DNA from: Desulfobulbus propionicus DSM 2032 | GTDB lineage: Bacteria; Desulfobacterota; Desulfobulbia; Desulfobulbales; Desulfobulbaceae | Direction of reading: 5' to 3' | NCBI RefSeq assembly: GCF_000186885.1 | Contig: NC_014972.1 | Coordinates: 3,690,001-3,722,000 of the forward strand | DNA: 32,000 nt | In this document: one piece after another, positions 4,272-25,888 of the stretch | How the letters are laid out: each line of letters starts with the position of its first letter | How positions within the stretch are numbered: the stretch's first letter is position 1 | Notes under the pieces: generated by a model | What the model was told of the DNA's origin: nothing | What the model saw: the letters and a program-made list of their open reading frames with translations, nothing else | The model's database searches: none | Made by a program: the position numbers and the translations under genes

Positions 4272-4644
4272 TCGATTTCAACTGTAGGGCCACCGCCCCG
4301 CTGATCGATGCGCCATGGAGGGGCGGGACCGTGCATGTGGCCTGTGCATCTCCCTGGGCCCACGCTCCTTGGCCACGAAGGGACTGTGGATGACGCCCGC
4401 CCCTTGTTCCCAGCTGGGGCTGTTTGACACCTTCCTGTTTTCCGCAACATTCCCGTTCTCAAGTAGCCCTACTGCAACCGATTGTTACAGGTGTTCTTTT
4501 TTGTCGCCCGCAGGCGGGCACATCCACAGTGCCGCCCCGCCATTCGAGACACGATCATTCTCTTACCGGCATGATGAATAGCCTTCCCATGGATGCCAAT
4601 TCTTTCATCTCCCTTGACTTTATTCACACTGTAGAGTCTATGGT

Positions 4645-4805
4645 CTATTGTTCAGGTGTTCGTAGAAACGTAAAAGGGAACTCCGTGCAAATCGGAGACG
4701 GGCCCGCCGCTGTGACCGGGGACGACCGCTGCACCATGTCACTGACGACTATGTCGGGAAGACGCAGCCAATAGGAAGAACCGGGAGTCAGAAGACCTGC
4801 CTGGA
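4645..4805 (+). promoter_or_regulatory. cobalamin (B12) riboswitch
   Basis: The conserved cobalamin-riboswitch blocks appear in the right order. These are AAAAGGGAA (4672-4680), GTGCAAATC, CGGGCCCGCCGCTGTGA, the B12-box variant GTCACTG (about 4738-4744), GGGAAGAC, and a 3' AGTCAGAAGACCTGCC. The 5' CAGGT pairs with the 3' ACCTG (P1). A possible promoter has its -35 TTGACT at 4614-4619. The element lies upstream of cbiK. Confidence 0.85.
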
Positions 4806-4874
4806 CGGGAGGAGGAAACGACTGCGCGGACGGCGGCGTATCCGATTTGATCATTTCTGTGGATATAAAGGGCT

Positions 4875-5029: not shown

Positions 5030-5935
5030 ATGAACATTTTGGAGATCAAAACGCTGGTGTTGACGATAATTTGCTGCGCACTTATAGGAACCGTCTGTTT
5101 CTCAGGCGCTGTCGGTGCAGCCGGTCATGCCGCCGAGGAAAAGGGGCCGGCAATCCTCTTGGTCACCTTTGGGACCAGTGTTGAAAACGCCCAGACAGCC
5201 TTCCAAAACATCGAGCACCGCGTGAAAGAGGCCTTTCCCAAGACTGAAGTGCGCTGGGCGTATACCTCATCGATCATCCGCAACAAGCTTGCCAAGAAAG
5301 GAATCCGGATCGATTCACCGGAAATGGCCTTGTCCCGGCTAATGGACGAGGGCTATACGAAGGTCGCGGTGCAATCATTGCACATGATCCCAGGAGCCGA
5401 ATTCCATGAAATTAATGTCAATAGCCGCTTGTTCGCACAGATGGCTGGGGGGATCGATACAGTCATGGTCTCGCAACCGCTCTTGATCAGCGACGCGACC
5501 ATGGACAAGGTGTTGAACACCGTGCAAACAAATATCATACCCGAGGAACGCAAGGCGGAGGATGCCGTCATTCTTATGGGCCATGGCACGCATCACCCCA
5601 GCGACGCTATCTATGGCGCGCTGATGTACAAGGCACAAAAAAGGGATGCCAATCTTTACGTTGGCACCGTTGAAGGTGCACCTTCTTTTGCTGAGATCAA
5701 GGAGATGCTGCTCAAGAAAAAGACGCAAAAAGCCTACCTCATCCCCTTCATGACCGTGGCCGGCGATCACGCCATGAATGACATGGCCGGTGATGAGCCG
5801 GATTCATGGAAGAGTCAATTAACTAAGGCAGGCATCACTGCCGTGCCCGTGATGAAAGGGTTGGCGGAGTTCGACCCCATCGTCGATATGTGGATTGACC
5901 ATCTCAAGAATACCATGATTCATTTCCACAAATAA
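5030..5935 (+). CDS. cbiK: sirohydrochlorin cobaltochelatase CbiK family, with N-terminal signal-like segment
   Basis: 301 aa. CbiK hallmarks are ILLVTFGTS, VRWAYTSSIIRNKL, VQSLHMIPGAEFHE and MGHGTHHPSD. The N-terminus MNILEIKTLVLTIICCALIGTVCFSGAVGAAG looks like an export signal. An RBS GGGAGA lies upstream. Confidence 0.85.
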   Translation: MNILEIKTLVLTIICCALIGTVCFSGAVGAAGHAAEEKGPAILLVTFGTSVENAQTAFQNIEHRVKEAFPKTEVRWAYTSSIIRNKLAKKGIRIDSPEMALSRLMDEGYTKVAVQSLHMIPGAEFHEINVNSRLFAQMAGGIDTVMVSQPLLISDATMDKVLNTVQTNIIPEERKAEDAVILMGHGTHHPSDAIYGALMYKAQKRDANLYVGTVEGAPSFAEIKEMLLKKKTQKAYLIPFMTVAGDHAMNDMAGDEPDSWKSQLTKAGITAVPVMKGLAEFDPIVDMWIDHLKNTMIHFHK

Positions 5936-6054
5936 GACCGTAAACTAATTAGTGTACAATATATCCACGGTTCTACGATAAGCCTAGTCATTGCAATTGT
6001 TCTCAGCTCCCAGCTCGATGGTTCCGTGGGAGGGATAGACTCGTCGCCTCATCG

Positions 6055-6189
6055 ATAAAAAAACCCCTGTTTTATGAATAAAAAAACAGGGGAAAAATAA
6101 TCAACTTGATCTGCCAAGATCGCGATCTTGTGGCAGGTAAAAAGTGAACAACAAACCGTTCACGCCCATCCCAGGCACACAAACGCCTG
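6055..6189 (-). terminator. cluster of four hairpins ending the island operon (tandem intrinsic terminators)
   Basis: Read on the minus strand after the stop at 6196. The hairpins are CAGGC-N8-GCCTG (6172-6189), GTGAAC-N8-GTTCAC followed by TTTTT (6139-6163), the imperfect palindrome CTGCCA..TGGCAG (6111-6136), and CCCCTGTTTT-N8-AAAACAGGGG followed by a T-run (6055-6092). Confidence 0.65.
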
Positions 6190-6195
6190 TTACGA

Positions 6196-7128
6196 TCATT
6201 GACGTTTTTTTACATTCTTCTTCTCATCTGGCAATGGCACATTATAAACAATATAGGCAAAATCGTTCATTAGTGTGGTGATACCTTGCTCAATCGCTTT
6301 TTCAAAAAGAGCATCGTACTCATAATCAGCCCAAAATGAACGTGGGGATACTTTTACATCATTTCTATTACTCCAAACTATATTGCCATTATATGCGTCT
6401 TGAACCCACATACGAATTTGAACAACAGCTTGTGGAATAGCTCCTAATTCAATTCTATCTTTATCATCAAAATCAGAAGAATTTAAATCATCATACACCT
6501 CAGTCGTTGTTTGACCAATCCAAAATTGCTCATCAGTACCGAAGAAAAATGGGATAATGCCTTTTTTCCACGGTGCCCAAGATGGATCCAAACGATCTCT
6601 GTATTGAATAATTCTACCTCGAACAATATAATCAGCAGAAAAATGTCGTCCTATTTTAACAATTTCTTGGGGACTTAGCCCATGAACAAGAGAAGTATCT
6701 CCTTCTATATTTTTATTATTGTTTTGAGTATCTTTTATATATCTCTTCAATGTTCTTTTCATATTACTTGACCAATCATTGTCAAGTTCATACTCAATCG
6801 ATACTGTTTTGTTTCGATCATAGGAGGTGACATTTATTATATTTTGGTCAGCTAAAAACTTATAAATATCTTCTTGAACAGGAAGATGAAATCCTAACCT
6901 TACAAACTGATCAGCCACGTTTTCACTAACAAAAAGATTCCTACGATAGGCACTTTCCAGATTGTCCGCTTGCGAATAATCGGCGAAAGGCAGAATAACC
7001 ACTGTTTTGTCGGCTCCCACTATATTCTTTTTGAGTGGATCGACTTTCAACGATTCATGGACGGTCGCGCCGCAACCACCAAGGCAAAAGGCGAGGAGGC
7101 AAACGAGTAGATGGTGGCGAAATTTCAT
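6196..7128 (-). CDS. lipoprotein of unknown function (possible LpoB/CsgG/TolB-N-like fold)
   Basis: 310 aa. Lipobox LLAFCLGGC. The motif VVILPFADYS and later strands (ADYIVRGRIIQY, VVQIRMWVQDAYNGNIVWS) resemble the small alpha/beta lipoprotein fold of LpoB/CsgG-type proteins, but this is recognition only, not a search result. RBS AGGAGA. It is the last gene of the operon. Confidence 0.75.
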   Translation of the reverse strand: MKFRHHLLVCLLAFCLGGCGATVHESLKVDPLKKNIVGADKTVVILPFADYSQADNLESAYRRNLFVSENVADQFVRLGFHLPVQEDIYKFLADQNIINVTSYDRNKTVSIEYELDNDWSSNMKRTLKRYIKDTQNNNKNIEGDTSLVHGLSPQEIVKIGRHFSADYIVRGRIIQYRDRLDPSWAPWKKGIIPFFFGTDEQFWIGQTTTEVYDDLNSSDFDDKDRIELGAIPQAVVQIRMWVQDAYNGNIVWSNRNDVKVSPRSFWADYEYDALFEKAIEQGITTLMNDFAYIVYNVPLPDEKKNVKKRQ

Positions 7129-7158
7129 ACCATTTCTCCTGTTATTCTGGGGACAAAG

Positions 7159-8919
7159 TTAAATAATTCTCGGAGTGAGCAGGATAACCAACTCACGTTT
7201 CTGCAAGGTTTTCTCTTCCACGCCAAAAAGGTATTTCACCACGGGAATGCTGCCCAAGCCAGGTGCAAAAGCACCTGTCTTTCCTTCAATACTGTCGATG
7301 AGACCACCGATGATCAGCATTTCTCCGTTTTCGACCTCCACCATGGTCGACATTTCACGTACTTTGACCTGCGGCAGGCCGAGAGACATGGCGGTCTCTC
7401 CCTCACCAATGGTGGTGATCGGGACCTCACCATCACTGGTGGCATTGGCCAAATCGGTTGTAATGGGAGTCAGATGGAGAATAACTTTATTTTCGTCCAG
7501 AATAGAGGCCATCACGCCCAGGGCAATTCCCTGAACCACATTCCCCACTTCAGCAGAATAGGTTATATCTTCGGTGTCGCTATCCTTTTCTCTTGTGACC
7601 GATTTTATGTAAGCAACATCCTTACCGACACTAATAATCGCTGGTTGCCCATTGAGAACGGTCAATTTGGGATTGGCTAACACATGAGTATCTCCCTGTT
7701 CCTCTAGTGCATTGAGAAAAACATCGAATGTTAAACTTGGAATCTCAACACGACTGACAAAAGTATTCGAAAAATCATCAGGGTCAGCAGTTGTGCGTGG
7801 ATGCACTTGGCCATTGTTGCCAAAAAAAGTAGTTGCTGAAATTTGAAAATCTTTAAGAACACTACTCCAATCAAGTCCAATTTTAGAGTTATCTTGCAAA
7901 TAAACTTCTATAATTTTGGCTTCAATGTTAACTTGCTTATACAATGATTTCTTTAAATTATTGATATAATCATCGACAACCTTCAACAAGCTCGGTTTTG
8001 CTGTCACAGTTATAAGTCCTACATTCCGGTCGATAACAAAGGAAGCCTTATCCTTTGCCCCCATGCTCATTGTTTTTTCTTCTGATCCGACCGCATCTCC
8101 TTTTGCTGCTTTCTCTGGTTCACCTTGTTTTGCACTGAACTCTTCACTCTTAGCCGTATTCGGCCCCATATTTTTATCATTTTCTTTTGCTTTGGTTTCT
8201 GCTGAAGATGCCAGAAGAACAGATTGTCGATCAGCCTCAGCTGTTTTGAGGATAATTTTCAAATTCGATTCAACGCTATCCCAAACATTGAACTTGTTTT
8301 CAGGGCTCGATATTTTAACGGATCCTTCTGTGCCTGAAGCAGCATCCTTATTCGAGAGAAAATTTCCGCCTACAGTCGAAGTATAACCGCCCTTCATGGC
8401 GGGAATACCTATTTGATAAACCTTAGTCTCTTTATTACGAACAACGACATTTTTGCCATTCACTTCATGAAAATAGTCAGCTTGACGGAGAAGGTTGGCA
8501 ATCGCATCAAAAAAATTATCGTTGGCTGCGATATCGACATCGACAGGAATCGTTTGGTCAACATCGCTCGCCCAGCTAACGGTCATACCCTTTAAATTCA
8601 CCAATCGTTTCATTACCTCCCAAAGGGGTTGCGGGCCACCTGTGGAACGTATCGTCGCACCCACTTTGATCTGGTATTCTTCAGGCTCGTCACCTAACTC
8701 GTCAACAGTATTATCTGGAGATATTAGGTAACCTGGTGTCTGATATCGAACAGGAAGTTGAGCGGGCGTTGCTATGGGCTTGTTTTCGATGGTGGCGCTC
8801 GAAGATGGTGGAGCGCTCTTATCAACATTATCTTTGGCCTTCTTTTTGGCACCGCAAGAGACCAGGAATGGCAGTGCGATCACAAGACACAGGCAGGCAA
8901 CATATTTGCTCAATTTCAT
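7159..8919 (-). CDS. outer-membrane secretin, lipoprotein type (MshL-like)
   Basis: I start it at the ATG 8917-8919 (MKLSKYVACLCLVIALPFLVSCG, lipobox LVSC, RBS GAGGA upstream). It has an N0-like domain (PLWEVMKRLVNLKGMTVSWASDVD..FFDAIANLL). It has a secretin core (QVNIEAKIIEVYLQDNSKIGLDW, HVLANPKLTVLNGQPAII, GIPVVKYLFGVEEKTLQKRELVILLTPRII). Confidence 0.9.
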   Translation of the reverse strand: MKLSKYVACLCLVIALPFLVSCGAKKKAKDNVDKSAPPSSSATIENKPIATPAQLPVRYQTPGYLISPDNTVDELGDEPEEYQIKVGATIRSTGGPQPLWEVMKRLVNLKGMTVSWASDVDQTIPVDVDIAANDNFFDAIANLLRQADYFHEVNGKNVVVRNKETKVYQIGIPAMKGGYTSTVGGNFLSNKDAASGTEGSVKISSPENKFNVWDSVESNLKIILKTAEADRQSVLLASSAETKAKENDKNMGPNTAKSEEFSAKQGEPEKAAKGDAVGSEEKTMSMGAKDKASFVIDRNVGLITVTAKPSLLKVVDDYINNLKKSLYKQVNIEAKIIEVYLQDNSKIGLDWSSVLKDFQISATTFFGNNGQVHPRTTADPDDFSNTFVSRVEIPSLTFDVFLNALEEQGDTHVLANPKLTVLNGQPAIISVGKDVAYIKSVTREKDSDTEDITYSAEVGNVVQGIALGVMASILDENKVILHLTPITTDLANATSDGEVPITTIGEGETAMSLGLPQVKVREMSTMVEVENGEMLIIGGLIDSIEGKTGAFAPGLGSIPVVKYLFGVEEKTLQKRELVILLTPRII

Positions 8920-8961
8920 AAAATGATCCTCAATATGATCCAAGACACGAAATACAAACCA

Positions 8962-10836
8962 TTATAGGGTGGGATGAACAGCAACCCGTCCTTTGATGAA
9001 TTTTTCCAAGTCAGGGGGAATCTGAAATCCTGATGACAAAATAGCGCGATATTGGGCAGTGGCCTGCTTTTCTTCGCCTAATTTATCGTGAATTCGGGCA
9101 GTCGCGACCATGGAATCGAGATTTTTTCCGTAGAGGCTATCATGACGGTTAAGAGCGGCGAGAGCAGAACGCAAATCTCTGTGATGTTCACTGAAGGCCG
9201 CATAATTCAAAAGAGATTCCTTTAGCGGCTTTGGCCCGCTGGTACTTTGTTTAAAATAAGACTCTGCCTGTCGAGTATCTTGCATGTTGGCAGAGGCAAT
9301 GGCCGCGTTGAGCAGGGCGGATTCATTGCGTGGGTCAGCCTCGATGGCGCGTTTGGCAAAGTATAAAGATTTCGCATTTTGCTGAAGCTGGACGAGATAG
9401 ATGGAGGCGATCTTATTGGCAAGTTTTGAGTTTTTCGGCCATTTTTCCAGTGCCTGCTCATACAGGCCTGCTGCCGTTTCAAAATTTTCCTGCCTTTCTG
9501 CCCCACGGCCTTTGGTAATCAGTTCTTTGGCCTCGATAATTTCAGCAGACTGTTTTTCTTGCTGCTGAACGATAAGTGTATCTCGCTCCATTACCGCTGA
9601 ATCAGCCTCAAAACTTAAGTTATTTTGAGCCTGTTCGGGCCATTTAAACCCCTTTCCTTTGGGATAAATGACTAATGTGTTAAATCGCTCCTCTTTTTCT
9701 AGATCTTTCAAATTGAGAATGATATCGAGAGCGAAATCCCAAGGGACATCATCCAGCACCAAGGTGAGAGCCCCCTCCACCGATTCATCGACAACGATAT
9801 TGACCCCACTTACCTGCCGTAGAAAGTTGAAAACGTTATGTAAATCCATTTTCTGAAATTCAACGGTGATCCGTTCCTTATTATAGCCGGAGAAATTGAA
9901 TGCATCCTGCATTTGCTGTTCTTTGGCTTTTGGTGAAGGTTTTGCATCCAACGGATTAATTGAAGGGAGCTGCGTGTCGATAGTTTTTTGTTGATTAATG
10001 ATCGAAGTAACTTGATCCTTTGACCTTGCCTCATCAACAATGATTTCTAAACCATTTGATATGGCATTAATGCTATATGGAAACAATGCGTCAGAGGATG
10101 AATGGAAACTAAAACGTAAGCCCGTGTCACGACGGGCAATCTGAATTTTTGACAGTGCTGTATCAACTTTGCGATCGGTTAAGGCAGCATCATCACTTGT
10201 GGCGTTATCAATGTCTATGATAAGCTGCGGGGGAATATTTCCGGATTTATCAACGGTACTTTTATTGTATTTCGATACAGTTTCATCGAAAAGCAGCTGT
10301 ATTTTTGTTCTTTTATTTTCTTTGGTTATGGAAACATCGGAAAATTTCGCCTGCTTGGTTCCGGATGAAACATTGACAGGTTGTTGTTGATTAACTGATG
10401 TTTCGCCGTTCTTGGATACGGAATTATTTCCGGCCAACAACAAAACAATTTCATTTTCATTCTGTTTCGTATTAAACGAAATTGCCTCTGGGAGAGTGAA
10501 TTCGAATCGTGATATTGAAGACTTCGCTCCTGGAACTTCACTTGTGGCCAATTTTATATTTTCATTTTCAATCGATTGAACAAAATCTTTCGCTATTTTA
10601 GCATCTGCGATATCAACTACGATCCTTGGAGGATTAGGCAATTCGTATACCGTCGAAACTAAAGAAGCTGTTCCTTTTATTCTTATTTCTTCCTGTTGAT
10701 TTATTTTTTTCAATGTTACCGAACTAATTTGAATTTCAGGTGTTTCGGCGTTAGAACTTGTGTGAAAAATAAAGAAAAACGTGAATAATAGCAGGATGGA
10801 ATATTTCGATCGCGCAAAAGAATGAAACATGATCAT
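8962..10836 (-). CDS. PilQ-N-terminal-like protein: signal peptide + 2 AMIN domains + N0 domain + C-terminal TPR domain, no secretin pore
   Basis: 624 aa. AMIN-like units span aa about 36-135 (..NPPRIVVDIADAKI..) and about 165-268 (..PPQLIIDIDNATSD..). The N0 domain spans aa about 320-393 (ITVEFQKMDLHNVFNFLRQVSGVNIVVDESVEGALTLVLDDVPWDFALDIIL). TPR-like repeats span aa about 440-600. There is no secretin-domain motif. It overlaps pilP by ATGA. Confidence 0.85.
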   Translation of the reverse strand: MIMFHSFARSKYSILLLFTFFFIFHTSSNAETPEIQISSVTLKKINQQEEIRIKGTASLVSTVYELPNPPRIVVDIADAKIAKDFVQSIENENIKLATSEVPGAKSSISRFEFTLPEAISFNTKQNENEIVLLLAGNNSVSKNGETSVNQQQPVNVSSGTKQAKFSDVSITKENKRTKIQLLFDETVSKYNKSTVDKSGNIPPQLIIDIDNATSDDAALTDRKVDTALSKIQIARRDTGLRFSFHSSSDALFPYSINAISNGLEIIVDEARSKDQVTSIINQQKTIDTQLPSINPLDAKPSPKAKEQQMQDAFNFSGYNKERITVEFQKMDLHNVFNFLRQVSGVNIVVDESVEGALTLVLDDVPWDFALDIILNLKDLEKEERFNTLVIYPKGKGFKWPEQAQNNLSFEADSAVMERDTLIVQQQEKQSAEIIEAKELITKGRGAERQENFETAAGLYEQALEKWPKNSKLANKIASIYLVQLQQNAKSLYFAKRAIEADPRNESALLNAAIASANMQDTRQAESYFKQSTSGPKPLKESLLNYAAFSEHHRDLRSALAALNRHDSLYGKNLDSMVATARIHDKLGEEKQATAQYRAILSSGFQIPPDLEKFIKGRVAVHPTL

Positions 10837-11384
10837 TTCTCTCCTTCTTTGTTCAGGCTCATGGTAATAATCGTTTTCATTTCTTTACCCGATCTCGTCA
10901 AAGCGGTTTCCGTAATAAATACTTGATCAGGTGTAATTTTTGTAACAATGCCTCTTTTGCCAATAGGCGTCCCTACTTTCAACAAATATCCTTTATTAGC
11001 TTGATCTTCAACCATCGCTAGTTCGTCAGTTGAACTTATCAAAACACCAACCAATTTGAGCTGTCCTGGTTCAAACAACTGCATTCCTATTAATTCATCT
11101 GTGCTTTCTATGATTTCATTGGGGTCGAATCCAGCAGGGACATCAGCCTTTTCAGAAAGAAACGGTTTGAATGGATCCATCCTCCCCTCAACTTTATAGG
11201 TGTAACTGTTATCCTTTGTACTTAAAAAATTATTAGTCGGATTATCCTCTCCAAAACAGTTGGGTAAAATCCCAAACAAAAATAAAGCATATCCAATTAG
11301 GCAAACCGCAAAGCGCCTAGGATTTTCTTTTTTTTCTATCATTGTGCGGTCATCTCTTATTGTCTTGGATAAAATACTCATCAC
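10833..11384 (-). CDS. pilP: type IV pilus assembly protein PilP-like
   Basis: 183 aa. It has an N-terminal hydrophobic anchor, then GRMDPFKPF and LKLVGVLISS..LLKVGTPIGKRGIVTKITPDQVFITE, which is the PilP pattern. It follows pilO. The start could instead be the internal MIEKK. Confidence 0.7.
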   Translation of the reverse strand: MMSILSKTIRDDRTMIEKKENPRRFAVCLIGYALFLFGILPNCFGEDNPTNNFLSTKDNSYTYKVEGRMDPFKPFLSEKADVPAGFDPNEIIESTDELIGMQLFEPGQLKLVGVLISSTDELAMVEDQANKGYLLKVGTPIGKRGIVTKITPDQVFITETALTRSGKEMKTIITMSLNKEGEK

Positions 11385-11411
11385 ATACAGTACACAAAGG
11401 CTAAAATAGAC

Positions 11412-12053
11412 CTATTTCTTGCCCTTCTTTCCTTTCTGCTCTGGCGGAGGAGCAGGTACATTAGTAAATCGATACGTAACCAATCGGCAGGAGGAAGAAA
11501 GCAACATCTCGCCTTCAACTTGTTCGGCCTTCTCTGTCTTTATATTGTTAACAGTTACTATTCGCTCAAGCTTACTAACTTTATCTAAAAATAATCCCAA
11601 ATTATGATAAGGTCCCTTGATCTTTATATCGATTGGAATTTCAGCATAGAAATCTTTTTGCATTTCCGCTCCAGGTACGAACGATATAAAATCTAGGCCT
11701 GAATTTTTCCCAAGATCGGATATGTTTCGCAACAAATTGGGTATTTCTTGGCTTTTCGGGAGAAGAACAGAAGTGAGTTCAAATTCGTTTTGCGCATCTT
11801 CAAGTTCCTTTTGATGTTTTGGTAAATCGCGAGCCGCTCTTCGGACCTTGTTCAGCTCGTCAGTAGACACTTGAATTTGCTTTTTCAAATTCTCTATATT
11901 TTTTAAATTTTGCTGTAGAAATCCAAAATAAAACAATGAAACAGGTAAAATAAAAGCTAATACCAATATTAATATTTTATACCTTTTATCAAAAGGTATA
12001 AATTTTTCATCAACGAAAATGTCATATTTATTTTTCTTGGATGTCAAACCCAT
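11412..12053 (-). CDS. pilO: type IV pilus assembly protein PilO
   Basis: 213 aa. Single TM helix, coiled coil, then a PilO core (LLPKSQEIPNLLRNISDLGKNSGLDFISFVPG..FYAEIPIDIKIKGPYHNLGLFLDKVSKLERIV). Confidence 0.75.
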   Translation of the reverse strand: MGLTSKKNKYDIFVDEKFIPFDKRYKILILVLAFILPVSLFYFGFLQQNLKNIENLKKQIQVSTDELNKVRRAARDLPKHQKELEDAQNEFELTSVLLPKSQEIPNLLRNISDLGKNSGLDFISFVPGAEMQKDFYAEIPIDIKIKGPYHNLGLFLDKVSKLERIVTVNNIKTEKAEQVEGEMLLSSSCRLVTYRFTNVPAPPPEQKGKKGKK

Positions 12054-12067
12054 TTTTTGGCCTAGTA

Positions 12068-12643
12068 TTAATTTGATATTCTTTGAGCAGTATCGTTATT
12101 CTCGAATCCAACAGTGCAGGAAGTCGAGAAGGCCTTCAAATCTCTATCCGCAAATTTTTCCATTGAAGAACTTACCAATGTTACATTTTTGATATATTTA
12201 GAATTTTCTAGATCATCCATAAATTTCGCGATAGTTTGATCATCAAGTGCCATACCAGTTAAACTGAGTTGAGCCGAATCTTGAGTAATGCCTTTAAGCC
12301 ACATCCGACGAAATGGGATCAGATTTGCAATTTCATCAAGGACGTGAACAGTAAGAGAGGAAGATTGTTTTAACTGTTTTATAACTTCAATACGTGTTGC
12401 AAGAACTTTTTTCTCTTCATCGATTTTCTTGATTTCTGCTAAGATTTTATCATATTGTTTTTTTTCAGATTGCAGAGCGGCATTGGTATCGCGCATTTTC
12501 TTAACAATGTTAGACTGGTAATATCCAAATGCAATAAGCACGATCACCAAAGCACCAAAAAATATTATCGATAAATTAATCTGTTGCTTAGCTTTGTTGC
12601 GCTTAATTATTTCCCGGACCGGGAGTAAATTGATATGAATCAT
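12068..12643 (-). CDS. pilN: type IV pilus assembly protein PilN
   Basis: 191 aa. It has the diagnostic N-terminus MIHINLLPVRE, followed by one TM helix and a coiled coil. Confidence 0.8.
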   Translation of the reverse strand: MIHINLLPVREIIKRNKAKQQINLSIIFFGALVIVLIAFGYYQSNIVKKMRDTNAALQSEKKQYDKILAEIKKIDEEKKVLATRIEVIKQLKQSSSLTVHVLDEIANLIPFRRMWLKGITQDSAQLSLTGMALDDQTIAKFMDDLENSKYIKNVTLVSSSMEKFADRDLKAFSTSCTVGFENNDTAQRISN

Positions 12644-12651
12644 AATTTTTT

Positions 12652-13698
12652 TTAAAAAGATGCAGAGCGAATTGCCAATCCAGCGGCGATGGCCATTTCA
12701 GGGGCTATGGAATCAAGGTAGTTTTCATCAAATTTCTTTGGATCATAGACCATTTTTTTAAAAGGATTAAAAGCGATTACACTCAACCCTGTTTCCTTTT
12801 CTATATATTCTTTGAGTCCATTCACTTTCGACCCTCCGCCACTCAATACCAAATACTTTAAATGTTTATCTGGATTATTCATAAGATACAAGTCAATGGC
12901 TTTCTTGATCTCTAAAACCCATTGGGTGCAAGTCTGGTTGAAAATTTTTTCTATATCTTCACGAAAATTTTCTGCGGAAACGATACCAAGCTTTATCTTT
13001 TCCGCTTGGGCATAATCGATATCAAGAGTGTTCGCCAGTTGCATGGTTAATTGTTCACTACCGACAACAATATCCCTAGCCAATACTGAAACACCTTCAG
13101 ATATGATATTTATATTCATTTTTGAAGCACCGATATCGACAAGTGCAACGTTTTCCATTGGTTCCGAAATAGTTTCCCAAATATTTTCAAGAGCAAACCC
13201 ATCAACATCAACGAGCACGGTCTTCAATTTTATCTCATTGAGCATATCTAAGTAATCATTCACAACCTCTTTTTTCGCCGCAACAAGCATTATGTCGTTT
13301 CGGTCACTATGCTCTTTCTTTGATGGTAATTTTTGAAAATCGAGATAGACATCATTTAAATCAAACGGAATATACTGTTCGGCTTCAGCTTTTATATATT
13401 CCGCTAAGGAATCGTCATCCATCGCCTCTAAATTGATTTTCTTAACAATAACGGAATATCCGGAAATCGAGATACCGATTTTGGTATTTTTTATTCTCAA
13501 ATTTTTGAGAAGGGCAGAAATTGTGCGCCCAACTTCTTCCGGTTCTTGAAGAACGCCATCTTCCACCGCACCTGGTGAAATGGCGGCACTGCCAACGGCC
13601 AATAATTTATAAGTCCGCCCGGATTTCTGGAGTTGGCAAATCTTAACGGCATGGGAACCGATGTCGACTCCGGTGATCAGTTTTTCATTTTTTGCCAT
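12652..13698 (-). CDS. pilM: type IV pilus assembly ATPase-fold protein PilM
   Basis: 348 aa actin-like fold. Motifs are ITGVDIGSHAVKICQL, VALVDIGASKMNINI and LVLSGGGSKVNGLKEYIEKETG. It is the first gene of the operon. Confidence 0.9.
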   Translation of the reverse strand: MAKNEKLITGVDIGSHAVKICQLQKSGRTYKLLAVGSAAISPGAVEDGVLQEPEEVGRTISALLKNLRIKNTKIGISISGYSVIVKKINLEAMDDDSLAEYIKAEAEQYIPFDLNDVYLDFQKLPSKKEHSDRNDIMLVAAKKEVVNDYLDMLNEIKLKTVLVDVDGFALENIWETISEPMENVALVDIGASKMNINIISEGVSVLARDIVVGSEQLTMQLANTLDIDYAQAEKIKLGIVSAENFREDIEKIFNQTCTQWVLEIKKAIDLYLMNNPDKHLKYLVLSGGGSKVNGLKEYIEKETGLSVIAFNPFKKMVYDPKKFDENYLDSIAPEMAIAAGLAIRSASF

Positions 13699-13774
13699 TT
13701 TCTTTTTTCTCTCGTTTAAGTATGGCAGACAAGGTTACCCACAGATATTAAATGCTTTTTTTACTCTGTTTTGT

Positions 13775-13804
13775 ATTAAGCACATAAAATAGATGCTTTG
13801 TCAA
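13775..13804 (-). promoter_or_regulatory. candidate sigma70-type promoter for the pilM operon
   Basis: The minus strand reads TTGACA (13799-13804), 18 nt, then CTTAAT (13775-13780), about 75 nt upstream of pilM. This is a sequence match only. Confidence 0.25.
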
Positions 13805-14355
13805 GCAAGCTGGTATTTTTTTCGCCCAACCTTGATCGTGAAGCGCTATTTGCCCTACAATAGTTAACGTATTGTCATAACATAATTTTTTAAAAAAATT
13901 CACCCCATCTGCCATGCTTGTGAGCTTTACCCGCCTTCATATGTGTATCCCGAGGCAAGAAAAATCGCGCCAGACAGACGAAATGCGTATTACCTGATTA
14001 AAAGCAGCCCAAAATAAAATTGTCAAATGCTGGAGTAAAAATTACCATGCCGCGAACACTGAAACAAAAAATCGATCAATCAGGCAATTTTCTCCAGCAT
14101 CCCATAAAACCGTGCCAGCGCTTTTGCCTCAAAATTGCCCCTTCCCTTCCCACAAAAACCATGGACTGCATTTAAACAAAGTTGACGCCGTATCCTCTTT
14201 TGGTTCAACCTTTCAACGAAAGGTTAAATTGTTGCATTTTTTCACACTAAACGATACAATATGAATTGTTATTCCTTTTGCTGAATCTACACAATCAAAA
14301 TAATTTTCATAAAAAAATTTTATGAATAAAATATTAACAATAAAAATTGAATATT

Positions 14356-15213
14356 ATGTCTTCTTCAGCTATTTTGCTTATTCATTGTCCCGACAATAAA
14401 GGGATAGTTGCAACAGTCAGTGAATTTATCTTTAAAAATAACGGAAACATCACCTATCTCGATCAGCATGTTGATTCAACGCAAAAGACTTTTTTTATGC
14501 GCATTGAATGGGAGTTGGATGATTTTATCATACCCCCCAATAAAATAGGGGAATATTTCGATACACTTATAGCCAAAAAATACTCAATGAAGTGGCAATT
14601 GCATTTTTCCAATGAAGTGCCGCGGATGGCTCTTTTTGTATCAAAACTTCCACATTGCCTATACGACATTCTTTCTCGATGGAAATCGCAAGAGATAGAG
14701 GTTGATATACCTCTCGTTATAAGTAATCATTTGGAGCTCGAACCGATAGCTCGGCAGTTCGGCATTGATTTTTATCATTTTGCCATAAATACTGAAAACA
14801 AAAGGGAACAGGAACAGGCCCAACTGCAACTTTTAGCTGAACATGACATCGAGTTCATCGTCCTTGCCCGGTACATGCAAATTCTCTCCGAAGAATTCAT
14901 CAGTCATTATCGCAACAAGATAATCAACATTCACCATTCTTTTCTCCCCGCCTTTCCCGGAGCGAGACCTTATCATTCGGCCTTCGAACGTGGTGTGAAA
15001 GTCATCGGCGCGACGAGCCATTATGTGACCGCTGAGCTGGATGCCGGCCCGATCATCACCCAGGACATCATCCGCGTCAGTCACGCGGATTCCGTCGACG
15101 ATCTGATGCGGAAAGGTCGGGATCTCGAAAAAGTGATCCTCGCTCGCTCCATCTGGCACCATTTGAAGCGACAAATCCTGGTCTTTCAAAATCGCACGGT
15201 GGTTTTTACTTGA
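14356..15213 (+). CDS. purU: formyltetrahydrofolate deformylase
   Basis: An N-terminal ACT domain (AILLIHCPDNKGIVATVSEFI) is followed by a formyltransferase core (IINIHHSFLPAFPGARPYHSAFERGVKVIGATSHYVTAELDAGPII). The ORF track starts at TTG 14347; I prefer ATG 14356. No clear SD sequence. Confidence 0.9.
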   Translation: MSSSAILLIHCPDNKGIVATVSEFIFKNNGNITYLDQHVDSTQKTFFMRIEWELDDFIIPPNKIGEYFDTLIAKKYSMKWQLHFSNEVPRMALFVSKLPHCLYDILSRWKSQEIEVDIPLVISNHLELEPIARQFGIDFYHFAINTENKREQEQAQLQLLAEHDIEFIVLARYMQILSEEFISHYRNKIINIHHSFLPAFPGARPYHSAFERGVKVIGATSHYVTAELDAGPIITQDIIRVSHADSVDDLMRKGRDLEKVILARSIWHHLKRQILVFQNRTVVFT

Positions 15214-19910: not shown

Positions 19911-19987
19911 TGGCGCGCCCGGAGGGATTCGAACCCCCGGCACTCGGATTCGAAGTCCGATGCTCTATCCAGCTGAGCTACGGGCGC
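19911..19987 (-). tRNA. tRNA-Arg (anticodon UCG)
   Basis: The minus strand folds as a 77-nt cloverleaf: GCGCCCG TA GCTC AGCTGGATA GAGC A TCGGA CTTCGAA TCCGA GTGCC GGGGG TTCGAAT CCCTC CGGGCGC G CCA. All four stems pair, with one G-U in the T stem. The CCA end is encoded. Confidence 0.95.
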
Positions 19988-20990: not shown

Positions 20991-22229
20991 ATGCGGCTGA
21001 TTCACACCTCGGATTGGCATCTTGGCCACCGCTTCCATGGGCGGCAGCGGCACGAGGAGCAGGGCCGTTTCCTGGACTGGCTGGTCGGCTCGATCGAGGA
21101 GCAAGGAATCGAGGCCCTGCTGGTGGCGGGCGACATCTTCGACACCACTGCCCCCGGCAGCCGGGCCCAGGCCCTCTATTATCGCTTCCTCCACCGGCTG
21201 GCCAGCTCCCCTTGCCGTCATGTGGTGATCACCGGCGGCAATCACGATTCGCCCGCTCTGCTCGAGGCGCCGCGGGAGCTGCTGCGCCAGCTGGACATCC
21301 ATGTGGTCGGCATGGCCGACGGCAACCCGGACAAGGAGATCCTGTTGCTGCGCGATGGTCAAGGTCTGCCCGAACTGTTGATCTGCGCCGTGCCCTTTCT
21401 TCGCGACCGGGACATCCGCCAGGCAGCGGCCGGCGAGACCCTGGAGGAAAAAGGCCGGCAATTGCGCGAGGGCATCCGCGCCCATTACCAACAGGTATGC
21501 GAACTCGCCGATCAACGGCGCAGGGAGATCGACGCCAACCTGCCTCTGGTGGTCATGGGCCACCTCTTTGTGGCCGGCGGACGCACGATGGAAGGTGATG
21601 GCGTGCGCGAACTGATGGTTGGCGGCCTGGATCGGATCGACAGCAGCAGTTTTCCCGAATGGATCGATTATCTGGCCCTCGGCCATCTCCACCATGGTCA
21701 GCAGGTGGCCGGCAGCCCCACGCGGCGTTATTGCGGAGCACCGCTGCCGATGAGCTTTGCCGAGGCCGGTCTGCGCAAGGAAATCCTCCTCCTGACCACC
21801 CGGGGACGAGATGTGTCGGTAACGCCGTTGACCGTGCCGGTGTTCCAGTCCCTGGCCTCCTTGCACGGCGATCTGGACCAGTTGCTGGCTGGCCTCGCGC
21901 AACTGAAAATCCATCCCGACCCCGCCTGGGTCGAGCTGATTTACGAAGGGGAAACGGTTGTTCCCCGCCTGCGCGACGAGTTGCTGGCGGCGGTCGAAGG
22001 ATCGGCGCTGAGCGTGCTGCGCATCCGCGACAGCCGCATCTATGATTATGTCCTGCGCCAGGCCCAGGAAGCGGAATCGCTCGATGATCTGAGCGTGGAC
22101 GAGGTGTTTGAGCGCTGCCTGGAGAGCAACCATATCGAGCAAGGACAGCGGCAGATACTGCGCGGGGCCTTTGCCGAAATCGTGGCTGCTGTGGAACACG
22201 GGACCAGCGCCCCAGAGACGGCGCCATGA
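20991..22229 (+). CDS. sbcD: exonuclease SbcCD, nuclease subunit D
   Basis: 412 aa. Calcineurin-like phosphoesterase motifs are MRLIHTSDWHLG, LLVAGDIFD, VITGGNHDS and VMGHLFVAGG. Its 3' end overlaps sbcC by 4 nt. Confidence 0.92.
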   Translation: MRLIHTSDWHLGHRFHGRQRHEEQGRFLDWLVGSIEEQGIEALLVAGDIFDTTAPGSRAQALYYRFLHRLASSPCRHVVITGGNHDSPALLEAPRELLRQLDIHVVGMADGNPDKEILLLRDGQGLPELLICAVPFLRDRDIRQAAAGETLEEKGRQLREGIRAHYQQVCELADQRRREIDANLPLVVMGHLFVAGGRTMEGDGVRELMVGGLDRIDSSSFPEWIDYLALGHLHHGQQVAGSPTRRYCGAPLPMSFAEAGLRKEILLLTTRGRDVSVTPLTVPVFQSLASLHGDLDQLLAGLAQLKIHPDPAWVELIYEGETVVPRLRDELLAAVEGSALSVLRIRDSRIYDYVLRQAQEAESLDDLSVDEVFERCLESNHIEQGQRQILRGAFAEIVAAVEHGTSAPETAP

Positions 22230-25200
22230 GGATCCACGCCGTCCGTCTGCGCAACCTCAACTCGCTGGCCGGAACCTGGGTCATCGACTTCACCGCTCCC
22301 GAATACACGGCCTCGGGCATCTTCGCCATCACCGGTCCCACCGGAGCGGGCAAATCCACCATCCTGGACGCCATCTGCCTGGCCCTGTTCGCCCGCACTC
22401 CCCGCCTTGGCCATATCAGCAAGGGCAGCAACGAGATCATGTCCCGCCGGACCGGCGACTGTTTTGCCGAGGTCGAATTCGAAACCCGGCGGGGCCGCTT
22501 TCGCTGTCACTGGGCCCAGCATCGCGCCCGCCGCAGTCCAGAAGGCGAGTTGCAGCCGCCACGGCATGAAATGGTCGACGCCACCAACGGCAAGGTCCTG
22601 GAAAGCCGCAGCAAGGAAGTCGGTCGTTTGGTGGAGCAAGTGACCGGCATGGATTTCGACCGGTTCACCCGCTCGATCCTGCTCGCCCAGGGGGAGTTTG
22701 CCGCCTTCCTCGAGGCCGACGCCGATCAACGCGCCCCGATCCTGGAACAGATTACCGGCACCGCCATCTATTCGCGCATCTCCATGGCCGTGCACGAACG
22801 GACCAGCGAGGAACGACGGAAAACCGAGCTCATCGCGGAAACCATGGGCAGTGTCTCGCTCCTGAGTTGTGATGAAGAGCAGGCCCTGACAGCGGCAATC
22901 AACGAACAGATGGCAACGGTGACCGCTCGACAGCGGCAGTTGGCCGAGCTCTCCCAAGCCCTGCACCGGATTGCCACCATCGAGTCGTTGCAGGTCCAGT
23001 TGGCCGAGACCGAGAGACTGCTGCTCGAACTGACCCGCCGCCGCGACGAGGACAAGGAGGTATTCCTCCGGCTGGAACGAGGCCTGCGCGCCCAGTCGCT
23101 GCTCGGCGACCACAACCGGCTCACCGAGACGGAAGGACGCCTGACCGGCCTGCGCGCCAAAAACGAGAGCCTGCGCGCTTCCCTGGAACAGCTCCGGGGG
23201 CAACAGCGGCAACGAGCCGAGGAATTGGCCCTGGCCGGTCTGCAACGGGAAGAACAGGCGACGCTGCAGCAACGGGAACAGGAGACGATCACCACGGTCT
23301 GCGCCCTGGACCTCCGCATCCACGAAAAGAGAAAACATCTCTCCCAGGCAACCGCCGCTCACCGACAAACCGCCCAGGAACGGGAACGGCTGCACCAACA
23401 GCGCCAGGAGCTGGACAAGCAGCTGATCGAGACAGACGCCCGTCAGCAGCAGCTCGACGCCTTTTTCCGTGCCCATGGAAATGACAGTCTGCTGGTGGAA
23501 CAGTTGGCCGGGTATCGCCAGCAGCTGAACCAACTGGGAGGCAAGGAACAAGGCCTAGAGCGGATGGAACAACGGTTGCGGGAGCTGCGGACCAGCCGAA
23601 CCGCGACCCAGGAGCAAATGGCCCGTCTCGGCGACGAGGAAGCGCGGGCAACCCAGACTCTAACCGTTTTGCGGCAGCGGCTGCGGTTACTGGAAACCCA
23701 GCGGGACGACCTCTTGGCCGGCCAGCCCCTCGCCGAATGGCGGCAGCAGGTAGAGGCCGAGGAGCTGCGACTGCGGCAGGTGGAAAAGGCCGCCGAACTG
23801 CTGCACCAGCAGCAACGCCTGGACATGGAGGCAGCAGCGCTTGACCGCCTGCTCCGAGACACCCAGGTTCGCATTGAGCGGGAGAAACACGAACTGCGGG
23901 CACTGGAAGACAAACGGTCGCTTCAGCAGCAGGTGGTGGCGCAGTGCGAGCGCAACCAGCAGCTGGCCCTGCGGATCCGCGGCTATGAACAAGAGCGTTC
24001 CCGGCTGGTGGAGGGACTTGCCTGCCCGCTGTGCGGCGCCACCCATCATCCCTTTGCCGAACATGGCGTGGAGGAGGCAATCATCGGGGACGAACCTGTT
24101 GCCGAGGCCCGCGCGGCCCTGGAGCGGATGACGACCGATATCGGCCAGCGGCGGGAGAAGTTGATCGGACTGGACAAGGACAGCGAACACGGCCAGCTGG
24201 CCCTGAACCGGGTGCGACAACAGCGATTGGAGCTGGAAGCAACGCTCACGCCGTTGCTGCCGCTGTTGGGCCAAACGGAGGATCGGTCCGCCGGGGCAAC
24301 CCGGACCCTGGCACAGGGACGGGAGCGGATCGCCGCCCTGCGCGACCGCCTTCGAGCCGTCGAGGACCGGGAAAGCGAACTTCAGCGGCTGCGCGCCCAG
24401 CTGGAACAGCACACGGTCCAAAGCAGCGAGCTGCAGCAACAGGTGCAGACGGCCCGACACGCGCTGACAACCATCGACCAGGATCTCTTCCATCTGGAGG
24501 GACAGCGCGACGAGGAACGGGCCTGGATTGCAGACTGCCGCCGCATCCTCCGGGATCACCTCCGGCCCCTGGGCATTGACGACTGTCCGCCAGGACACGG
24601 CCACTCGCTGCTGCTGCACCTGGAAACCCGCCTGCGGAACTGGAAAGCGCAGCAAGAGCAAATGGATCGCCTGACTCGTCTCCGCTCCAATCTGCAAACG
24701 GAACGGGACAAACTCGACCTGCTGCTGACCACCACGATCGACCGGCTGGCACAGCAGGAGGGGGAACTGGAGCGGATGCGGCGGGAACAGGCCGGGTTGC
24801 TGGCGGAGCGGTTTGAACTCTACGGCGACCGCGATCCCACCATGGAAGAACAGCGGTTGAAAACCCTGGTGCAGCAGGCCGAGGCCAAGGAACAAGGTAT
24901 CCGGAATCAGCTGATCGAGGTCGAACGGGAGCTGTACGGTCAGGGCGAACAGCTACGCCTGAACAGCGAGGAACTGGACACCCTGGGACCGCGGGTCCGC
25001 GAGTTGAAAACAGGTCTGCTGGCGCGGCTGGTCGAGGCCGGCTTTATCGATCGGGATGATGTTCTTGGCAGCCTGCTGGCGGACGAAGAGCTGGCGGAAC
25101 TGGACAAACACCGGCAGACCCTGGACAGGGAACAGACCATGCTCACCGCCCGCCTGACCGAGCAACGCGCGGCCCTAGCCCGCGAGCAGGCCCTGCGGGA

Positions 25201-25888
25201 CGAACGGCGCCAGGAGGAACTGGAGGCCGCGCAGGCAGCGGGGCAGCAGGAGCTGGAAGCGCTCCACCAGCGTATCGGCGCCGACCGGGAACGACTGGCG
25301 GTCAACGCCCGTCTCAAACTCCAGTTCGAGGCCCAGCAACAGGTCCTGGCGGCACAGCACCGGGAGCTGGAGCGCTGGGAACTGCTCCACCAGTTGATCG
25401 GTTCGGCCGACGGCAAGAAATTCCGCGTCTTTGCCCAAGGGTTGACCTTTGAGGTGATGATCAGCCACGCCAACCGCCAGCTGCGCACGATGAGCGACCG
25501 CTATATCCTCCTGCGCGACCCCAAGGAACCCCTGGCCCTGCAGGTGCTCGACAACTATCAGGCCGGGGAGATCCGCTCGACCCGCAACCTCTCCGGCGGC
25601 GAGAGCTTTCTCGTCAGCCTGGCCCTGTCGCTGGGGCTGTCGGCCATGGCCAGCCACAATGTCCAGGTCGATTCCCTCTTCCTCGACGAGGGCTTCGGCA
25701 CCCTCGATGAAGAAGCCCTGGATGCCGCCCTCCAGACCCTGGCCGAGCTGCGTCAGGACGGCAAGCTGATCGGCATCATTTCCCATGTGCCCATGCTCAG
25801 GGAGCGGATCGACGCCCGCATCCAGGTACTGCCGGGGCCGGGCGGCCGCAGCCGTCTGCGCGGGCCGGGCTGCGCTCAGCTCGGCTGA
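22226..25888 (+). CDS. sbcC: exonuclease SbcCD, ATPase subunit C
   Basis: 1220 aa. N-terminal Walker A (ITGPTGAGKSTILDAICLALF). A very long Q/E/R/L coiled coil carries the zinc hook CPLCG (about nt 24020-24040). C-terminal signature LSGGESFLVSLALSL and Walker B LFLDEGFGTLD. Confidence 0.92.
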   Translation: MRIHAVRLRNLNSLAGTWVIDFTAPEYTASGIFAITGPTGAGKSTILDAICLALFARTPRLGHISKGSNEIMSRRTGDCFAEVEFETRRGRFRCHWAQHRARRSPEGELQPPRHEMVDATNGKVLESRSKEVGRLVEQVTGMDFDRFTRSILLAQGEFAAFLEADADQRAPILEQITGTAIYSRISMAVHERTSEERRKTELIAETMGSVSLLSCDEEQALTAAINEQMATVTARQRQLAELSQALHRIATIESLQVQLAETERLLLELTRRRDEDKEVFLRLERGLRAQSLLGDHNRLTETEGRLTGLRAKNESLRASLEQLRGQQRQRAEELALAGLQREEQATLQQREQETITTVCALDLRIHEKRKHLSQATAAHRQTAQERERLHQQRQELDKQLIETDARQQQLDAFFRAHGNDSLLVEQLAGYRQQLNQLGGKEQGLERMEQRLRELRTSRTATQEQMARLGDEEARATQTLTVLRQRLRLLETQRDDLLAGQPLAEWRQQVEAEELRLRQVEKAAELLHQQQRLDMEAAALDRLLRDTQVRIEREKHELRALEDKRSLQQQVVAQCERNQQLALRIRGYEQERSRLVEGLACPLCGATHHPFAEHGVEEAIIGDEPVAEARAALERMTTDIGQRREKLIGLDKDSEHGQLALNRVRQQRLELEATLTPLLPLLGQTEDRSAGATRTLAQGRERIAALRDRLRAVEDRESELQRLRAQLEQHTVQSSELQQQVQTARHALTTIDQDLFHLEGQRDEERAWIADCRRILRDHLRPLGIDDCPPGHGHSLLLHLETRLRNWKAQQEQMDRLTRLRSNLQTERDKLDLLLTTTIDRLAQQEGELERMRREQAGLLAERFELYGDRDPTMEEQRLKTLVQQAEAKEQGIRNQLIEVERELYGQGEQLRLNSEELDTLGPRVRELKTGLLARLVEAGFIDRDDVLGSLLADEELAELDKHRQTLDREQTMLTARLTEQRAALAREQALRDERRQEELEAAQAAGQQELEALHQRIGADRERLAVNARLKLQFEAQQQVLAAQHRELERWELLHQLIGSADGKKFRVFAQGLTFEVMISHANRQLRTMSDRYILLRDPKEPLALQVLDNYQAGEIRSTRNLSGGESFLVSLALSLGLSAMASHNVQVDSLFLDEGFGTLDEEALDAALQTLAELRQDGKLIGIISHVPMLRERIDARIQVLPGPGGRSRLRGPGCAQLG

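Follow-up and report, generated by a model that had tools for sequence, protein, structure and literature searches.

In canonical type IVa pili (T4aP), a single polypeptide, the secretin PilQ, has four functions: it makes up the pore, receives PilP, attaches to peptidoglycan and is the protein on which the pilotin acts. PilP docks on the N0 domain of PilQ, as seen in Pseudomonas aeruginosa. Here we describe a pilus locus of Desulfobulbus propionicus DSM 2032 in which these functions appear to have been put on two chains, with a self-targeting lipoprotein pore swapped in. The locus lies in a window of 32,000 nucleotides (NCBI RefSeq assembly GCF_000186885.1, contig NC_014972.1, positions 3,690,001 to 3,722,000; all coordinates below are positions within this window), where one gene on the minus strand encodes a protein with AMIN, PilQ-type N0 and tetratricopeptide repeat (TPR) domains, here called the adaptor, and the next gene encodes the secretin.

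Among described systems, free N0-like partners of a secretin are known from type IVb pili. The 2025 cryo-electron microscopy study of BfpB describes a lipoprotein secretin with a tether (LG), N0, N3 and secretin domains but no S domain, which needs no pilotin (PMC12531336). Its partner BfpG is a homologue of TcpQ that resides in the periplasm, is not lipidated and folds like an N0 domain; in sequence it shows no similarity to the N0 domains of secretins. It sits on the BfpB tether in 17 copies (17:17) and is required for BfpB assembly (PMC12531336). The AMIN–STN–TPR order itself is architecture class (v) of de Souza et al. 2008, who suppose that the TPRs build a shell-like transport superstructure at the outer membrane; the organisms in their figure legend include the delta-proteobacterium MLMS-1 and Geobacter sp. 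FRC-32, and the legend does not specify which of its organisms carries AMIN–STN–TPR (PMC2572700). The statement in the initial annotation of this window that it knew of no described equivalent is therefore not upheld, given both the 2008 record of the architecture and the existence of BfpG and TcpQ. The fusion has been known since 2008, but as a listed architecture without operon context or function, and we found no functional study of such a protein in the open-access literature searched. Because the domain architecture was already on record, what is new here is the reading at the level of the system, not the fusion. The elements on which this reading rests are as follows.

8962 to 10836, minus strand: adaptor gene, an open reading frame of 624 amino acids encoding a signal peptide, AMIN1, AMIN2, a helical linker, N0 and TPR
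10435 to 10734, minus strand: AMIN domain 1, amino acids 35–134 (family profile, AlphaFold2)
10033 to 10350, minus strand: AMIN-like domain 2, amino acids 163–268 (hhalign against AMIN1, AlphaFold2)
9661 to 9873, minus strand: N0 (STN) domain of PilQ type, amino acids 322–392 (profile, NCBIfam, AlphaFold2)
8977 to 9600, minus strand: TPR domain, amino acids 413–620, 12 helices in about six repeats (AlphaFold2, Foldseek, Pfam)
7159 to 8919 (open reading frame to 8943), minus strand: lipoprotein secretin, 586 amino acids, with the ATG at 8919 as the most likely start
8410 to 8667, minus strand: the secretin's own N0-like domain, amino acids 85–170 (alpha/beta in the model, predicted local distance difference test (pLDDT) score about 80)
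8728 to 8760, minus strand: motif QLPVRYQTPGY in the secretin tether, amino acids 54–64 (conservation in 51 homologues)

The AlphaFold2 model of the adaptor, built from 60 homologues, has a mean pLDDT of 83.6 and four confident domains; in parallel, a family profile of 60 sequences was searched against PDB sequences. The N-terminus reads as a Sec-type signal, a hydrophobic stretch ending ...SSNA/ETPE, and it contains no lipobox: the window protein lacks any cysteine, and there is no conserved lipobox among the 60 homologues, only five of which have lipobox-like strings, sitting within the hydrophobic core. AMIN1 gave a weak match as a single sequence (Pfam, amino acids 41–89, 17.7 bits against a cutoff of 20.5); the family profile matched the AMIN region of Myxococcus xanthus PilQ (43 bits) and the AMIN domain of AmiC (E = 1.3e-4). 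AMIN2 aligned with AMIN1 profile to profile over 99 columns (hhalign, 83% probability, E = 9e-6). Both are confident beta domains in the model, with pLDDT 91–97 over most 10-residue blocks, and AMIN2 is absent from homologues of about 510–535 amino acids, which are shorter Desulfobulbus forms.

Two helices (amino acids 275–314) lead from AMIN2 to N0, which AlphaFold2 builds as beta-alpha-beta-beta-alpha-beta-beta and Pfam matches to STN/N0 at amino acids 345–393 (26.7 bits). The family profile matched the PilQ N0 domains of Myxococcus, Pseudomonas, Neisseria and Vibrio with E values of 2e-16 to 2e-34, the best of these being M. xanthus PilQ, matched in two stretches that correspond to AMIN and N0 (E = 2e-34). 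Positions 2–110 of the NCBIfam PilQ model match adaptor amino acids 321–429 (E = 8e-19), and the N-terminal part of this model is matched by all 60 homologues. N0 is also the most conserved domain of the adaptor, with a mean identity of 87% across 59 homologues, compared to 56% for the TPR and 35–40% for the AMIN domains.

After a low-confidence linker, the chain continues as a TPR solenoid modelled with pLDDT 94–98 over amino acids 431–610. Pfam places TPR_19 at amino acids 449–481, above its cutoff; Foldseek matched the model to consensus TPR proteins, OGT, MamA and PilF, and the family profile also matched generic TPR proteins among the PDB sequences. The model and these matches rule out that the C-terminus is a diverged N1 or secretin domain. 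Pfam detected no Secretin domain in the adaptor, none is recorded among the 120 homologues listed, and the score of the adaptor on the PilQ model TIGR02515 (68 bits) is far from the cutoff of 284. The initial annotation, made from the letters alone, had already described a Sec-signal protein with two AMIN-like units, an N0 domain at 9658–9879 and no secretin motif, next to a separate gene for a pore with its own N0-like domain, and each of these points was borne out; it was also right to place TPRs after N0 but put them at about 160 amino acids, where the domain measures about 208.

The neighbouring gene matches Pfam Secretin with E = 4e-34. On the MshL model (TIGR02519) its product scored 251.4 bits, marginally above the cutoff of 250.2, compared to 122 bits on GspD, 107 on the type IVb PilN secretin and 99 on PilQ, and MshL is the label it carries in public annotation (NCBI, JGI). 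When searched against solved pores, the secretin profile matched GspD, BfpB and PilQ about equally and only from residue ~257 on; M. xanthus PilQ, the best match of the adaptor front end, was a weak match here (E = 2e-9). The protein starts with a lipoprotein signal, with a lipobox LVSC whose Cys22 is invariant in 51 homologues. In an AlphaFold2 model of moderate confidence (pLDDT 62.6), the signal is followed by a disordered tether (amino acids 23–82), the N0-like domain, a long helix with disorder, one ring domain (amino acids 293–342) and the secretin core (amino acids 350–586), with no S domain visible. The best Foldseek match of this model was BfpB from the BfpB–BfpG complex (9u5s; E = 5e-17, 572 aligned columns).

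The N0-like domain of the secretin was modelled as beta-alpha-beta-beta-alpha-beta-beta, gave weak Foldseek matches to the isolated N0 domains of LspD (7pmp) and PilQ (4ar0) and is conserved across four distant loci described below. Profile searches found no sequence-level match between it and any solved N0, and its comparison with the adaptor N0 by hhalign returned a probability of 11.6% from alignments of low diversity (effective number of sequences, Neff, ~1.7), which argues against a recent duplication. In the tether ahead of it, a motif of the form QLPVR[Y/F]QxPx[Y/F] is kept across Desulfobulbales in an otherwise variable region modelled with pLDDT below 50; L55 and P56 are invariant in the 51 homologues and R58 and Q60 are conserved in at least 90%. 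The motif is not recognisable in the four distant loci (L085–L088). On the strength of this conservation, QLPVRYQTPGY is a candidate docking peptide for the adaptor.

We conclude that the pore is a complete, self-contained, MshL-type and BfpB-like lipoprotein secretin that belongs to another subfamily than PilQ. This contradicts the proposal that the adaptor is the N-terminus of a PilQ severed from its pore by a domain swap: the neighbour is not the remainder of PilQ (251 bits for MshL against 99 for PilQ), MshL is likewise preferred over PilQ by the partner secretins of four other lineages, the best structural match is BfpB, and the secretin carries a signal, tether and N0-like domain of its own.

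Both genes belong to a minus-strand cluster of seven, in the order pilM-pilN-pilO-pilP-adaptor-secretin-lipoprotein, in which PilM, PilN, PilO and PilP are of T4aP type by Pfam and NCBIfam. The adaptor gene lies directly 3' of pilP, and the pilP stop overlaps the first adaptor ATG (ATGA), an arrangement indicating that the two genes are translationally coupled. The true start of the adaptor is likely to be the ATG at 10830 (MFHSF...), which agrees with the starts of homologues and with a public gene call of 622 amino acids. At the other end, the adaptor TAA stop is followed by a 42-nt spacer containing stops and then by the secretin ATG, which opens the lipoprotein signal MKLSKYVACLCLVIALPFLVSCG.

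Adaptor homologues number more than 1000, and the identical protein occurs on independent assemblies. Scanning one genome per species, we found an adaptor relative in 325 and compared the loci of the best 80 of these; given the number of homologues and of species genomes with a relative, a chance origin is excluded. The best 80 genomes are almost all labelled as Desulfobulbales or related Desulfobacterota, with a few odd labels such as Oleiphilaceae, and include isolates of Desulfobulbus (D. rhabdoformis), Desulfogranum (D. japonicum), Desulforhopalus and Desulfosediminicola. Searching the fetched loci with seven window proteins by tblastn, we recovered the gene order of the window wherever the contig was long enough. 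A few close homologues are filed under metagenome bins of Prolixibacteraceae, Chlorobium and Oleiphilaceae; these are 55–59% identical to Desulfobulbus proteins and are probably mis-binned short contigs rather than cases of transfer.

At E <= 1e-30, an exhaustive HMMER search with the N0 and TPR part of the adaptor (amino acids 300–624) found 113 clusters at 50% identity. Short fragments aside, nearly all of the members listed span N0 and TPR end to end at lengths of 317–839 amino acids, so the AMIN part is what varies, from no copies to several (for example, in an 839-residue member, P0289). By source name, distant members come from Dissulfuribacter thermophilus, Thermosulfuriphilus, Desulfatiglans anilini, Desulfobacteraceae and unclassified Thermodesulfobacteriota. 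Lower-ranking matches were unrelated multi-STN proteins (FecR-like, BlaR1-like and fusions with sulfatase-modifying enzymes), which we do not count as family members. In four distant loci, of Dissulfuribacter, Desulfobacteraceae, Thermosulfuriphilus and Desulfatiglans type, the order pilM-N-O-P-(AMIN)-N0-TPR-secretin was found again, and in two of these loci the adaptor and secretin genes overlap. Their partner secretins scored 236–265 bits on the MshL model, two of the four falling just below the cutoff of 250.2.

The operon is thus conserved in multiple orders and classes of Thermodesulfobacteriota, the phylum to which the Desulfobulbales with the cable bacteria belong, and in all lineages of the phylum that we examined it is the standard pilMNOP-linked secretin locus. 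The adaptor–secretin module is a genuine variant of the outer-membrane module of T4aP, both ancient and widespread. The comparative data also refute a frameshift or misassembly that split one pilQ, an artefact that the initial annotation had named as a possible undoing of its reading and that we regard as practically out of the question. Only the adjacency of the two genes speaks for it. The two-gene arrangement recurs in the best 80 of the 325 species genomes, isolates included, and in Desulfatiglans anilini; the last 210 amino acids of the adaptor are TPR rather than secretin domains; beyond the stop-containing spacer, the secretin opens with a lipoprotein signal of its own; and independent assemblies carry the same protein.

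The reading we favour, with a probability of roughly 0.55, is that the adaptor is a soluble periplasmic component of the T4aP machine that supplies the non-pore functions of PilQ in trans, while the pore is a lipoprotein secretin that targets itself. Under this scheme, the AMIN domain or domains would attach to peptidoglycan and hold the machine in place in the cell wall or set its position there. The adaptor N0 would serve as the docking site of PilP and thereby connect the PilMNOP alignment complex in the inner membrane with the part of the machine in the outer membrane, and the six-repeat TPR would hold the secretin, with the QLPVRYQxPxY tether peptide or the N-terminal domains of the secretin as candidate ligands. 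The adaptor may assemble stoichiometrically around or under the secretin ring. Docking of PilP on the adaptor N0 is suggested by an indirect but coherent argument from the sequences: PilMNOP is of T4aP type, and no N0 of PilQ type is encoded in the operon except that of the adaptor; this N0 exceeds the other adaptor modules in conservation; and the pilP and adaptor genes are translationally coupled. The N-terminal domain of the secretin, for its part, matches neither a solved N0 nor the adaptor N0 at the level of sequence. In addition, the partner secretin resembles BfpB, which needs a periplasmic N0-like partner on its tether (PMC12531336).

Several observations weigh against this assignment. 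The N0-like domain of the secretin could itself be the true partner of PilP, and the adaptor TPR is at least as close to unrelated TPR families as to the pilotins of pili. N0–TPR adaptors are found far beyond Desulfobulbales, the only group in which the tether motif occurs, so the motif cannot be the universal ligand of the TPR. AMIN is dispensable in some lineages, where homologues of 317–460 amino acids consist of N0 and TPR only. We infer the contacts of the adaptor, their stoichiometry and its binding to peptidoglycan from monomer models and gene context, and the comparison covers pilMNOP-linked loci, such that a full-length canonical PilQ may be encoded elsewhere in these genomes.

The main competitor, which we consider possible but clearly less probable, takes BfpG and TcpQ as the model: the adaptor N0 would bind the secretin tether by strand addition, surround the ring of N-terminal domains as a hoop and stabilise the multimer, leaving PilP to the N0-like domain of the secretin and the TPR and AMIN domains to anchor or space the assembly. 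BfpB is the best structural match of the secretin and has the same layout, which runs from a lipobox and tether through N0 and a single ring domain to the pore, with no S domain to be seen; BfpB assembly depends on the non-lipidated, N0-like BfpG, which occupies the tether at a ratio of 17:17 (PMC12531336), and the disordered tether of our secretin contains a conserved motif. However, the adaptor N0 is of PilQ type by sequence, whereas BfpG lacks similarity to secretin N0 domains (PMC12531336); Pfam TcpQ (PF10671) has no match on the adaptor and a weak match on the secretin instead; and a hoop leaves the constant translational coupling of a T4aP-type PilP to the adaptor unexplained. Somewhat less probable still is a tethered assembly chaperone, a factor and not a stable subunit, whose TPR would transiently bind the unfolded beta-lip and aid multimerisation while AMIN restricts it to septal or polar peptidoglycan. 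The precedent is M. xanthus, in which AMIN-dependent recruitment of PilQ enables local action of Tgl, a six-TPR lipoprotein that promotes PilQ multimerisation, probably via the unfolded beta-lip (PMC10653833). The 12-helix TPR of the adaptor equals in size the six-TPR pilotins PilF, PilW and Tgl (PMC10653833), PilF (2fi7) superposes on it with a template-modelling (TM) score of 0.66 normalised to PilF, and all 60 homologues match the PilW model (TIGR02521; best E = 1e-11). Yet Foldseek puts consensus TPR proteins and OGT above PilF, the PilW match of the window protein (amino acids 447–601, E = 2e-9) scored 37 bits against a cutoff of 154, and the models of unrelated TPR families, PrsT and MamA, were matched with similar E values. 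A purely chaperone role would also not account for the extreme conservation of N0.

The lack of a lipobox counts against the chaperone as well, and it settles a related point: not being a lipoprotein, the adaptor does not have a defining feature of pilotins, and a true lipoprotein pilotin is ruled out. The pilotin-like function suggested by the initial annotation finds no support in the PilW scores either. Moreover, the partner secretin carries a lipid anchor of its own, a feature that makes a pilotin unnecessary in the case of BfpB (PMC12531336). We consider it improbable that the TPR domains self-assemble as a shell or as spokes around the machine, without specific binding to the secretin, as PflA and PflB do in the Campylobacter flagellar motor. 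Such a cage was foreshadowed by the shell-like TPR superstructure predicted in 2008 (PMC2572700), and Foldseek aligned 498 columns of the adaptor model, comprising its beta-rich part and TPR, to a periplasmic scaffold chain of the Campylobacter jejuni flagellar motor (9hmf_K). This alignment has a root-mean-square deviation of 32.7 Å and indicates a likeness in architecture only; nothing points to self-association of the TPR, and the tight coupling of the adaptor and secretin genes suggests a direct partner.

Returning to the reading in which the adaptor supplies the non-pore functions in trans, a bolder version, which we offer tentatively, would make the system a two-chain secretin of Thermodesulfobacteriota: a lipid-anchored MshL-type pore joined by a stoichiometric AMIN–N0–TPR ring that replaces the periplasmic vestibule of PilQ, with N0 as the PilP-docking layer and the TPR clamped on the tether. 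If true, this would add a third class of secretin partner to the pilotins and the BfpG-type hoops, and nature would have provided an experiment in which the formation of the pore is uncoupled from anchoring to the wall and from docking of the alignment complex. If the adaptor is a stable component of the ring, the N0–PilP interface, positioning by AMIN in trans and recognition of the secretin by the TPR could each be studied in isolation. Automated annotation mislabels the locus, calling the adaptor PilQ (JGI) and the pore MshL (NCBI, JGI).

The remaining members of the operon, and its probable end, are the following.

12652 to 13698, minus strand: pilM, first gene of the operon (Pfam PilM_2, E = 5e-73; NCBIfam pilM, 254.6 bits, cutoff 133)
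12068 to 12643, minus strand: pilN (Pfam PilN, E = 1e-17)
11412 to 12053, minus strand: pilO (Pfam PilO, E = 8e-42)
10833 to 11384, minus strand: pilP (Pfam PilP, 31.5 bits, cutoff 25.6)
6196 to 7128, minus strand: lipoprotein, seventh gene of the operon, 310 amino acids (lipobox LGGC, conservation)
6144 to 6163, minus strand: terminator-like hairpin after the seventh gene (consensus scan only, weak)

The hairpin likely marks the end of the operon; the terminator scan of the window yielded no more sites than shuffled sequence, so that the hairpin is weak evidence. The seventh-gene lipoprotein gave weak Pfam matches to LpoB, FlgT_M and the CsgG clan, with LpoB matched weakly in 15 of 16 homologues, and its profile found no relative among solved structures. 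The window protein is without a glycine-rich insertion that many homologues contain. Desulfobulbales loci that are long enough keep the gene, as does L086, but L085, L087 and L088 do not have it; it may encode a further secretin-associated factor.

Base composition across the window is strongly uneven. Within 6000–15200, the pil operon genes have 35–48% GC and purU 43%, compared to 52–65% for flanking housekeeping genes (L,D-transpeptidase, cbiK, transketolase, sbcC and mnmA). The dip is smaller in the two nearest relatives, L030 and L033 (0.40–0.41 versus 0.44–0.54), and absent from the other Desulfobulbales loci. Elsewhere in the window, a gene for a CbiK-type cobalt chelatase with a signal-peptide-like N-terminus (5030–5935, plus strand) is preceded by a cobalamin riboswitch (4637–4818, plus strand, 118 bits), a tRNA gene occupies 19914–19987 (minus strand, Rfam 70.9 bits), and the sbcD-sbcC nuclease pair (20991–25888, plus strand) falls in the high-GC part.

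Set beside canonical PilQ, the adaptor has AMIN followed by a PilQ-type N0 and is encoded directly after pilMNOP, but it has a TPR in place of the N1/N3 ring domain, pore and beta-lip, and the pore comes from a gene of its own that belongs to a different secretin subfamily. As a proposed wall-linking partner separate from the secretin, it recalls FimV, TsaP and ExeA/ExeB, separate proteins that link secretins to peptidoglycan and aid their assembly or positioning. These use LysM or PG_binding_1 rather than AMIN, and to our knowledge none of them carries a PilQ-type N0. The neighbouring secretin resembles MshL of the MSHA pilus in scoring on TIGR02519 about twice what it scores on the GspD or PilQ models, at a borderline value, but pilMNOP rather than mshI/J/K lies upstream and a lipoprotein rather than mshM/N downstream. 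Secretins have repeatedly been co-opted between type IV filament systems, in which MshN and TadD are related TPR proteins (Denise et al. 2019; PMC6668835; PMC10499894). With the pilotins PilF, PilW and Tgl, and with TadD and MshN, the adaptor shares a TPR module of about six repeats associated with a secretin; PilF, PilW and Tgl are outer-membrane lipoproteins, whereas the adaptor is without a lipobox, is fused to AMIN and N0 and scores far below the pilotin cutoff.

Its order of domains, AMIN(s), STN/N0 and TPR repeats, is identical to class (v) of de Souza et al., although their paper does not mention the placement of the gene in its operon, the MshL-type lipoprotein secretin encoded separately, variants that lack AMIN or the spread across the phylum. 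BfpG with BfpB, and TcpQ with TcpC, likewise pair a free, non-lipidated periplasmic protein of N0 fold with a lipoprotein secretin encoded beside it, and our secretin has the tether–N0–ring–pore layout of BfpB. In fold and location the adaptor is like BfpG and TcpQ, but it falls outside their PF10671 sequence family; BfpG is a single small N0-like domain, whereas the adaptor N0 is of PilQ type, is flanked by AMIN and TPR and is encoded with a T4aP-type PilMNOP machine. The locus is not categorically new; it is a natural split of the functions of a secretin.

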